64,000 nt of DNA from a virus (taxonomy: Duplodnaviria > Caudoviricetes), in the IMG/VR virus record IMGVR_UViG_3300014205_000173. One strand, given 5' to 3'. The notes below the pieces were generated by a model that saw nothing but the letters and a program-made list of their open reading frames with translations, was not told where the DNA came from and did no database searches. The translations under genes and the position numbers were made by a program. Shown piece after piece: positions 7,280 through 32,925 of this stretch (the stretch's first letter is position 1; each line of letters begins with the position of its first letter).

Positions 7280-8512
7280 CTATCCCATTAATTCTACAAG
7301 ATATTTAATGGTTACTTGATCTGGTTTGTATACAATGAATTCGTCATTTCTAAGATCTGCACCCTTAACGCCATATGCAGAATGAAAATCTCCCTTTTTT
7401 CTCAAAACATTCCAATTTAAATCATAACACCAAGAAGAATGCTTATGGATCAAAAGTTGATTTCCAACATGAAAATCAAACAAAGACATAAAACATCTAC
7501 TAGAAGAACCTTTTGCCCAATAAGAACCCTTTGCACTTGTATAACCATATGATTTACGAGAAAGTGATGCCCCATAAATACCATCACCGTACATCGAACC
7601 TGTATATACTGCACTTGAAGGTCTAATCATAAGACCACTATCAATAATAGACCACCAATTTTCATTTCTAGAACCATGCCAAAACAATTCAGTCTTTTTG
7701 TTTGAGACTGTTGAAACAAAGTTATTAAACTTCTCTTGAGTTCTATTGTTTACAATTTTCCATGCTGACGTAAATTTATCTTTAATTTCACCAAGTTTGC
7801 TTTTAATAACCTTAACGTCATCATCATCTGCAAGAGAAAATTTAATTCCCATTGCATCAAGAATATTTAGATCAGAAGAATCGTCTTGATTTTTTTGAAC
7901 ATTAGAAACGTTAACTTGTCCTCTCATAATATCCAATGACGATTGTTCTTCAACTAATAGCTTGTTCGTAAAATCAAATTTATCTGGACTATTAAAAGTC
8001 CCAAATTGCAAAACTGCCTCTCTTGTATTTGCAATTCTACGAGGAACTGTTGTCCAAAGTTTAATAAGACAATCGTTAAATCTACTTGTTGAAGAATCAT
8101 TTTTAACTAAAGACGAAAGCTCATTTAAAATTAATTGAGCCGTATCAATTTGTTTTTGTGTAACCTGATCTGTTGTTACTGTATAGTTTGCAGCTACAGA
8201 CTTATTTGCGAATGACTGCAAATCACGTACAATTAAAGCAATACTAGAGTCTTTAATCCCAATAAAATCCCTTTTATTGCTAGCAACAACAAATAATTCT
8301 GTTTGATCTTTATATCCCTTTTTTAACTTCTCTCTATACTTACTTTCCCATTCATTCATTGAATATATTTTTTTACTTGAAGTAACTCCTACTCTTCCCC
8401 ATGTAGCTTCCCACTCACTACTATTAAGTTGTTGCATATCATAATATTTATTATTATTATCTAAGGTTACACAAACTAGTTTTTTTGTTTTATATCCAGA
8501 TTTAACGTCCAT
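7280..8512 (-). CDS. PARP-like ADP-ribosyltransferase (WGR + helical regulatory + catalytic domain)
   Basis: NNNKYY..WGRVG..KLKKGY (WGR); FWHGS, GSMYGDGIYGA, SYGY, NDEFIVY (H-Y-E triad). Confidence 0.92.
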   Translation of the reverse strand: MDVKSGYKTKKLVCVTLDNNNKYYDMQQLNSSEWEATWGRVGVTSSKKIYSMNEWESKYREKLKKGYKDQTELFVVASNKRDFIGIKDSSIALIVRDLQSFANKSVAANYTVTTDQVTQKQIDTAQLILNELSSLVKNDSSTSRFNDCLIKLWTTVPRRIANTREAVLQFGTFNSPDKFDFTNKLLVEEQSSLDIMRGQVNVSNVQKNQDDSSDLNILDAMGIKFSLADDDDVKVIKSKLGEIKDKFTSAWKIVNNRTQEKFNNFVSTVSNKKTELFWHGSRNENWWSIIDSGLMIRPSSAVYTGSMYGDGIYGASLSRKSYGYTSAKGSYWAKGSSSRCFMSLFDFHVGNQLLIHKHSSWCYDLNWNVLRKKGDFHSAYGVKGADLRNDEFIVYKPDQVTIKYLVELMG

Positions 8513-21937: not shown

Positions 21938-22022
21938 AGCACATGGAGGGATTCGAACCCCCGAAGAACTTTCGTTCAACTGCTTTGCAGGCAGCTTCAA
22001 TTGACCACTCTGACACATGTGC
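21938..22022 (-). tRNA. tRNA-Cys(GCA) with long variable arm, no encoded CCA
   Basis: GCACATG/CATGTGC-U73; GCTGC-CTGCAAA-GCAGT; V arm GAAC-GAAA-GTTC; GGGGG-TTCGAAT-CCCTC. Confidence 0.85.
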
Positions 22023-22655: not shown

Positions 22656-22731
22656 TGGCTCCCCCACATGGGCTCGAACCACGAACCTACGGATTAACAA
22701 TCCGCCGCTCTACCGATTGAGCTATAGGGGA
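22656..22731 (-). tRNA. tRNA-Asn(GTT)
   Basis: TCCCCTA/TGGGGGA-G-CCA, GCGGA-TTGTTAA-TCCGT. Confidence 0.95.
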
Positions 22732-22754
22732 ACATTAAACAGAGCACCTGATTA

Positions 22755-23171
22755 CTTACTACTACGATTTTCATCGCCAACTTTTAACCTTGGATGAATC
22801 ATCATCTGTATTAAAATGTTGTTTGTAGTCTGGACCATGCCATAACCATGAGTCCTTGCTTGAAACCCATTCCATCCTTAGTAGAAGTTGGTATTTCAAT
22901 AGGATTTCTTTTAGGTCCCTACCGTCTGGCCTCTACACATTCCATATTTCCTAATTCCGAATGGGAATTCAGCCCATTATCTTCTCTTTTGGAGGGAGAC
23001 GCTCTAACTTAAGCTACTTCACAGAAATATGTTAGCTCGGCGTTGTCTCAATGCTAGCTAGTTCATTAGGGAGTTCACCGCAAATATAGAATTTTTTACC
23101 AGAAAATTTATATTTGTTTGATTTGATAGGTTTTTCAATCATAGTTTCCTATGAAAGCTGCTATTCAGTTT
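22755..23171 (-). mobile_element. group I self-splicing intron, 417 nt, no homing-endonuclease ORF
   Basis: P1 exon CTGT/IGS GCAG with U-G at splice site; P4 CGGTG/CGCCG; J6/7-P7 GTAGAGGCCA with GGCATGGTCC; P9 CGAT-GAAA-ATCG; terminal G; P10 CTGAATA/TAATCAG. Confidence 0.85.
22953..23023 (-). other. tRNA-Trp(CCA)-like cloverleaf nested in intron P6 region
   Basis: TA-GCTT-AAGTTA-GAGC-G-TCTCC-CTCCAAA-AGAGA-AGATA-ATGGG-CTGAATT-CCCAT; acceptor stem degenerate. Confidence 0.6.
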
Positions 23172-23237
23172 ACAGTCAGGTGCTCTGCAAATTATTAATG
23201 CAAGAGCAAAAAATCTTATTAGTTTTTCAAAGAACAA

Positions 23238-32839: not shown

Positions 32840-32925
32840 TGGCAGGAGCGGAAGGATTCGAACCCCCATAAGGCTGACGCCCACAGATTTGGAGTCTGCT
32901 GTCTTTCCAGTTAGACGACGCTCCT
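32840..32925 (-). tRNA. tRNA-Trp(CCA) with long variable arm
   Basis: AGGAGCG/CGCTCCT-G-CCA; GCAGA-CTCCAAA-TCTGT; V arm GGGC-GTCA-GCCT. Confidence 0.88.

Follow-up and report, generated by a model that had tools for sequence, protein, structure and literature searches.

A tRNA-shaped insert at the P6 tip of a predicted IC3-type group I intron in a phage tRNA gene cluster

Introduction

The td intron of phage T4 carries I-TevI in P6, and in some group I introns the P4-P6 domain serves as a binding site for synthetases such as CYT-18. Among phage-associated non-coding RNAs, GOLLD is a large representative with an embedded tRNA. The presence of open reading frames in the peripheral loops of group I introns is textbook knowledge (PMC3984707), and IC3 introns residing in tRNA anticodon loops are well catalogued, with classes such as Leu.3Ug, Arg.5Ug, fMet.2Ug and Ile2.5Ug (Williams 2020, 10.1101/2020.01.27.920355). 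For the pre-tRNA intron of Anabaena, splicing is reported to need pairing of the anticodon-stem exons (Zaug, McEvoy and Cech 1993, as quoted in PMC3984707). In the literature searched we found no description of a tRNA-shaped module inside a helix of a group I intron. Here, we analyze such a module on a stretch of 64,000 nucleotides (the window) that stems from a virus of the Caudoviricetes (IMG/VR record IMGVR_UViG_3300014205_000173).

Results

Genomic neighbourhood and exon hairpin

The window has a low GC content (about 28%), and its minus strand carries all long open reading frames together with the eight tRNA genes. The window belongs to a contig of 287,662 bp (ENA assembly ERZ27247358), and the encoded proteins are nearest to those of the uncultured huge phages LR756500-LR756503, with identities of 38-47%. 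A neighbouring R2K/ATP-grasp protein has many relatives, synteny not being maintained, and no relatives at all were found for the 210-aa protein encoded upstream. The element studied here stands at the head of a cluster on the minus strand, in which it is followed by the genes for tRNA-Asn, tRNA-His, tRNA-Pro and tRNA-Cys. Long variable arms are present in the tRNA-Cys(GCA) (21938-22022, minus strand, 85 nt) and the tRNA-Trp(CCA) (32840-32925, minus strand, 86 nt) of the window, which is unusual for both isotypes.

Odd tRNA genes were also noticed in the huge phages. A tRNA at 7380-7515 of LR756500.1 (locus L002) has its 5' acceptor strand GGGGGAA split from the D arm by an insertion of about 64 nt; its Rfam match covers model positions 6-65 only (38.7 bits), and its 3' end reads UUCCCCC-G-CCA. 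LR756501.1 (locus L001) contains an odd tRNA-like gene of 99 nt with a long insert at 106-204 (38.6 bits) and another one with an enlarged D region and the anticodon loop CUUCCAA at 336-401 (30.7 bits).

The exons flanking the element in the window are short:

23172-23187, minus strand: 5' exon with CUGU at its end, forming one side of a 12-bp hairpin
22740-22754, minus strand: 3' exon, UAA and the partner strand of this 12-bp hairpin

Within 22740-23187 (minus strand), the host of the intron consists only of this perfect 12-bp hairpin with the loop of tRNA-Asn(GUU), and ARAGORN with introns allowed found no tRNA body around the intron. An intact, intronless tRNA-Asn gene starts at 22731, that is 8 nt downstream of the 3' exon. 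The 5' flank of the exon retains the sequence GCUC...GAGC-A, and as this resembles a D stem, the intron host looks like the hairpin remnant of a tRNA-Asn. The anticodon stem is the sole part of the host that has been kept, and this fits the need for its exon pairing reported for Anabaena. Just upstream of the 5' exon (23190-23215, minus strand) a further hairpin, UGCUCU(U)GCA-UUAAUAAUU-UGCAGAGCA, is possible and rivals the exon hairpin for the GCAGAGCA strand of the latter.

The enclosing group I intron

The intron of the window is related to an intron that splits a complete tRNA(CAU) gene on a 206-kb phage contig, L003 (nhmmer, E 4.8e-8). With the core blocks of these two introns about 130 copies were retrieved from IMG/VR, JGI metagenomes and two bacterial MAGs; the family copies sit in complete tRNA-Asn, Lys, Arg, Leu and CAU genes. 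A covariance model, R1, was derived from 32 diverse family members with the window and L003 left out. In its alignment, which yields P3, P4, P5, P6 and P8, 16 of the 26 pairs show compensatory changes, and the model matches the window at 23100-22822 (minus strand) over its full extent with 44.3 bits (E 2.9e-8). P7, the guanosine-binding helix that forms a pseudoknot with P3, reads GGCCA/UGGUC in the window, GACU(A/U)/(U/A)AGUC in the family and GACUG/CAGUC in L003, the changes being compensated on both strands. By sequence, the carrier is a real IC3-type tRNA group I intron, for which the following parts are predicted:

22755-23171, minus strand: IC3-type group I intron, 417 nt (model R1, nhmmer match to L003 and family covariation)
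at the 5' splice site of the intron, minus strand: P1 with U.G
23154-23139, minus strand: P2 with a GAAA loop
23091-23086 and 22922-22917, minus strand: P3
23080-23076 and 23042-23038, minus strand: P4
23073-23047, minus strand: P5
22931-22927 and 22837-22833, minus strand: P7
22755, minus strand: terminal G of the intron

The splice sites were assigned by analogy. CUGU and, beyond the 5' splice site, AAACUGAAUAGCAG give a P1 of CUGU/GCAG with U-1 in the U.G wobble, while the intron would end with ...GUAGUAAG, its last nucleotide being the terminal G, and be followed by UAAUCAGG, so that the predicted exon junction consists of ...CCUGACUGU joined to UAAUCAGG. The complete tRNA-Asn(GUU) genes of loci L010 and L011 have the same two sites, CUGU on the 5' side and G before UAA on the 3' side. 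In the notation of Williams (2020), the insertion site corresponds to Asn.4Ug (CUGU/.../UAA). The 3'-terminal GUAGUAGUAAG pairs with AGACUAC, the equivalent in the relatives being GUGG with CCAC. A segment of L1, CUGAAUA, is complementary in six of seven positions to UAAUCAG of the 3' exon; P10 is fitted to this exon. In L003, the intron-bearing tRNA(CAU) gene (953-1466) is followed after about 90 nt by an intronless tRNA(CAU) gene of similar sequence (1553-1626), which is the same pairing of paralogues as that at the tRNA-Asn of the window.

The Rfam model for group I introns (RF00028, Intron_gpI) has no match in the window even at E<10. It gives 31.5 bits for the L003 homologue, which is below 50, and 50-62 bits for short-form members of the family. 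The window intron is missed by this model because of its large insertions, which R1 places at the P6 tip (89 nt), in P8 (53 nt) and in P5 (18 nt). It has the lowest score among 50 family matches. It keeps 41 of the 46 columns that are conserved to at least 95%, and its five deviations tie for the maximum in the family, the median being 0; the deviating columns include J3/4 (AUU for AAA), the closing pair of P4 (G for U) and one position in P7, where the change is compensated. Furthermore, about 45 nt of AU-rich filler are located between P2 and P3 (23092-23138, minus strand), where relatives have about 6 nt. The filler and the changes in J3/4 suggest that the ribozyme core may be relaxing, and since the window intron is the most divergent copy of the family, its own activity would not seem assured.

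Architecture of the P6 insert

An initial annotation of the window had described a tRNA-like cloverleaf nested in the peripheral loop of the intron between the Q and R blocks. The 89-nt insertion that R1 places at the P6 tip lies exactly there, and every arm listed in that annotation is present on the minus strand:

23023-23031, minus strand: 5' strand of the P6 extension, CAUAUUUCU, pairing with 22943-22951
23017-23022, minus strand: 5' linker GUGAAG, 6 nt, unpaired, in the place of an acceptor strand
23001-23016, minus strand: D-arm-like hairpin UA-GCUU-AAGUUA-GAGC (Rfam tRNA alignment, ARAGORN -mt)
22983-22999, minus strand: anticodon-arm-like hairpin UCUCC-CUCCAAA-AGAGA (Rfam alignment, ARAGORN -mt)
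22978-22982, minus strand: variable-loop equivalent AGAUA, 5 nt (Rfam alignment)
22961-22977, minus strand: T-arm-like hairpin AUGGG-CUGAAUU-CCCAU (Rfam alignment, ARAGORN -mt)
22952-22960, minus strand: 3' linker UCGGAAUUA, 9 nt, unpaired, in the place of the 3' acceptor strand and CCA
22943-22951, minus strand: 3' strand of the P6 extension, GGAAAUAUG, closing a 9-bp helix with CAUAUUUCU

The insert is a non-coding, tRNA-like segment of 73 nt without an open reading frame, in which the D arm, the anticodon arm (with a 7-nt loop, U33 and a purine at 37), the variable loop and the T arm follow each other at canonical tRNA spacing. A single G separates the D-like from the anticodon-like arm. 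Equivalents of U8, A9, A14 and A21 accompany the D-like arm, the loop of which, AAGUUA, contains a single G. The only mismatch in the anticodon-like stem is a C.A at its last pair, beside the loop, and the loop itself, CUCCAAA, is the canonical one of tRNA-Trp and also that of the window's own tRNA-Trp. In the T-like arm, the equivalents of G53-C61 and A58 are kept without those of U54 and C56, and the loop reads CUGAAUU, not UUCRANY. When aligned with the Rfam tRNA model, the insert retains U8, A9, A14, A21, G26, U33, A37, A44, G45, G53-C61 and A58. Of the elbow-forming nucleotides, neither G18 and G19 of the D loop nor T54, Psi55 and C56 of the T loop are kept, and in the ARAGORN -mt drawing acceptor positions 1-7/66-72 form two Watson-Crick pairs and one G.U pair out of seven, the discriminator and CCA being absent. 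What is present is therefore the core of a tRNA body only.

In agreement with this, the view that the acceptor stem is degenerate, that CCA is missing and that the fold cannot be charged was borne out, and the three nested layers that had been proposed, anticodon hairpin, intron and pseudo-tRNA, do exist as DNA. One could imagine that the insert is a functional tRNA gene whose product is released from the surrounding intron by processing, as its anticodon arm and body are tRNA-like. We give this next to no credence: two of seven possible acceptor pairs are of the Watson-Crick type, neither discriminator nor CCA is there, and the linkers of 6 and 9 nt part the body from the P6 stem, which leaves no minihelix for RNase P. 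Moreover, the phage already possesses the tRNA-Trp(CCA) mentioned above. Standard ARAGORN detects no tRNA at the insert even when its thresholds are lowered to 70%, because the acceptor pairing is limited to those two Watson-Crick pairs and one G.U. A real tRNA gene was rejected as a candidate on account of the missing acceptor stem.

Significance of the tRNA likeness

The Rfam tRNA model RF00005 matches the insert unprompted at 23016-22961 (minus strand) over model positions 8-63, with 29.7 bits and hence only 0.7 bits above the gathering cut-off of 29. The E value of this match is 0.039 when the whole 64-kb window is searched with 4227 families, and it falls to 0.0005 when the search covers the local 800 nt. 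The initial annotation had called for ARAGORN at relaxed settings and for shuffled controls. The former gave a divided answer: the metazoan-mitochondrial mode, which is permissive, arrives at this very cloverleaf and labels it mtRNA-Trp(cca), whereas the standard mode, as stated above, reports nothing. In the mitochondrial mode, any call was obtained in only 2 of 1000 dinucleotide shuffles, and a sequence-only HMM built from 73 phage tRNAs gives the insert 10.5 bits, a score reached by none of 2000 shuffles. In all three independent tests, Rfam, ARAGORN -mt and HMM, the likeness of the insert to tRNA goes beyond chance, and it is statistically real. No matches to GOLLD, ROOL or any other Rfam family were found at the element.

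When the 96-nt P6 segment is folded in isolation, the minimum-energy structure is a stem with three hairpins (-19.3 kcal/mol). A competing hairpin, GAAUUCC/GGAAUU, is about as stable as the T-like arm and replaces it in a slightly longer context. Such an equally stable competitor is what might be expected if the insert were a chance or convergent look-alike, that is an idiosyncratic multi-hairpin expansion of P6 which happens to have tRNA spacing and was never a tRNA, and the Rfam score barely at the threshold as well as the silence of standard ARAGORN point in the same direction. On the other hand, the E value of 0.039 already spans the whole window and all 4227 families, the shuffles hardly ever match the insert, and pure pairing would explain neither the unpaired tRNA-specific U8, A14, A21, G26, U33, A44, G45 and A58 nor the perfect Trp anticodon loop. 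Since the likeness is real and extends beyond the needs of pairing, it favours descent from a tRNA fragment, for and against which we see the arguments as evenly balanced, over coincidence, which appears rather unlikely to us.

The P6 tip across the intron family

Among the 131 copies surveyed, the gap between Q and R comprises 13-25 nt in 123, where it often forms a GNRA-capped hairpin. It is enlarged to 69-96 nt in nine distinct, unrelated forms (the window, L003, L161-L166 and L078) and to about 480 nt in two copies (L075 and L104). The P6 inserts of the latter two contain, antisense to the intron RNA, a gene for an HNH endonuclease of about 160 aa, in line with the suggestion that P6 is a place where homing-endonuclease genes are often inserted. 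The P6 tip is an insertion hot spot of this intron family.

The homologous introns show no conserved tRNA cargo at this position, and the other eight enlarged tips are not tRNA-like: neither ARAGORN -mt nor the tRNA HMM scored any of these medium-sized inserts as a tRNA, and the Rfam tRNA model found no tRNA likeness in the P6 inserts of L003, L064 and L078. A tRNA shape is consequently not required of the P6 domain. For the question of a chance look-alike this cuts both ways. Eight other lineages have acquired unrelated P6 expansions, that of L165/L166 likewise has three small hairpins set on the P6 stem, and the insert of L003 has the same length of 96 nt and carries hairpins of 4 and 5 bp, the first and the last, at offsets similar to those in the window, without any tRNA sequence. 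A chance resemblance to tRNA that arose from a generic ancestor with two hairpins therefore stays a rival. Against it stands the fact that all eight score nothing as tRNA.

The L003 insert, the one other insert of this length, shares no sequence with that of the window, which lends no support to a functional cargo. Homology of the two inserts was considered and rejected, given that 327 of 1000 shuffles align as well; the core of the window intron is no closer to L003 than to members with a short P6. Common descent of both inserts is therefore not supported.

The window and about 170 fetched loci yielded neither a donor tRNA nor any further copy of the insert. A blastn search of 50,697 phage records with the element gave no match, the exact D-arm pattern does not occur in IMG/VR, and the huge-phage records LR756500 and LR756501 contain no copy of the Q block. 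A pattern search for Q-R gaps of 75-105 nt in IMG/VR and metagenomes found no match. A corresponding search for gaps of 99-129 nt, which would offer room for a full tRNA, led to a single false match in GC-rich coding DNA (L170); a full tRNA nested in P6 was not found in this intron family.

These comparisons also bear on the proposal that the insert is a functional cargo, an unchargeable tRNA mimic displayed on a stable ribozyme scaffold. As a decoy, a selected mimic on the intron RNA could soak up an anticodon nuclease of the host or another tRNA-binding defence protein; as a handle, it could recruit a tRNA-binding protein, for example a synthetase, that helps the enlarged intron to fold. The anticodon loop does not differ from the one in tRNA-Trp, the tRNA-Trp of the phage itself included, the core nucleotides of the D stem and variable region are well kept, the element lies on the transcribed strand within the phage tRNA cluster, and the binding of CYT-18-type synthetases to P4-P6 of some group I introns would offer an analogy for the handle. 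Nevertheless, we hold a mimic to be improbable. No conservation can be demonstrated, the window having the only tRNA-like tip among the nine enlarged ones; the D-loop/T-loop elbow, which is read by most tRNA-binding proteins, is lost; and the anticodon stem is mismatched next to its loop. The scaffold itself is the most divergent copy of the family, with changes in J3/4 and in the P4 closing pair and with 45 nt of AU-rich filler, and this looks more like decay than like a refined device. As it stands, the proposal of a functional cargo found no support in the comparison.

Discussion

The cloverleaf body of 56 nt, flanked by unpaired linkers, folds as a tRNA-like unit at the tip of P6, resembles tRNA to a significant degree and is unique within its intron family. 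It may well represent a degenerate tRNA-derived fragment, a pseudo-tRNA, that is tolerated as a peripheral domain of P6, although it could about equally well be something else. The absence of acceptor pairing and CCA, the lack of the D-loop GG, the altered T loop and the C.A mismatch are signs of decay that lead to the reading as a degenerate tRNA. This reading is weakened by the fact that we deal with a single example shared by no relative, that no donor tRNA was found in the window and the fetched loci and that the Rfam score is so close to the cut-off; sequence analysis by itself would also leave room for a function.

We infer a tRNA origin, a capture event and the lack of a specific function along the following lines. 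The P6 tip points away from the catalytic core and is the place where this family tolerates insertions; elsewhere it holds a short hairpin, an unrelated fold of 45-75 nt or an antisense HNH endonuclease gene. In a phage genome rich in tRNA genes, a piece of such a gene could have been captured at this tip, possibly by break repair that followed endonuclease cutting or the loss of an endonuclease gene. The captured fragment would then have lost its acceptor stem and elbow nucleotides and may have persisted because it folds by itself and is harmless to the core. It would be transcribed within the intron without being excised by RNase P, provided with CCA or charged, and its present role would be structural at most, as a peripheral domain of P6.

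An extended version of the mimic would be a selected device, in which the intron, once spliced out, presents a tRNA-Trp look-alike that cannot be charged, as one case of a wider, undescribed habit of jumbo phages and thereby either titrates a tRNA-directed defence enzyme of the host or recruits a tRNA-binding protein that aids folding of the oversized ribozyme. We consider this highly improbable. If tRNA-shaped modules should turn out to recur, and to be conserved, among large phages, mobile introns would have to be credited with an additional class of cargo, made of RNA, and perhaps with a novel type of tRNA decoy; a single, decayed and unconserved example does not establish such a class. The value of the decayed tRNA-like fragment described here is that of a data point and of a pointer to a rich family of phage tRNA introns with an insertion hot spot at P6.

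The intron of the window resembles known IC3 introns, such as those in Azoarcus tRNA-Ile(CAU) and Anabaena/Nostoc tRNA-Leu(UAA), in its core blocks, P3-P8, U-1, the terminal G and the anticodon-loop site, and we take the core blocks of the whole family to be those of the Azoarcus and cyanobacterial IC3 introns. Unlike these introns, which comprise about 200-250 nt, it reaches 417 nt through insertions between P2 and P3 and in P5, P6 and P8, escapes the Rfam Intron_gpI model, is hosted by a 12-bp hairpin instead of a tRNA and holds a tRNA-shaped fold at the tip of P6. With GOLLD it has in common a tRNA-like unit in a larger structured phage RNA near tRNA genes; GOLLD and ROOL differ from the element, which has no match to their Rfam models and in which the carrier is a group I intron. 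The insert is similar to tRNA pseudogenes and tRNA-derived fragments in that D, anticodon and T arms match while the acceptor stem and the loop consensus are lost. Free tRNA pseudogenes are intergenic, whereas the insert of the window, for which no parent gene was found, lies inside a ribozyme helix. Finally, introns with a homing-endonuclease gene in a peripheral helix, including the HNH-bearing L075 and L104, likewise accommodate foreign sequence in a loop that protrudes from the core, but the cargo in the window is a non-coding, tRNA-like RNA.
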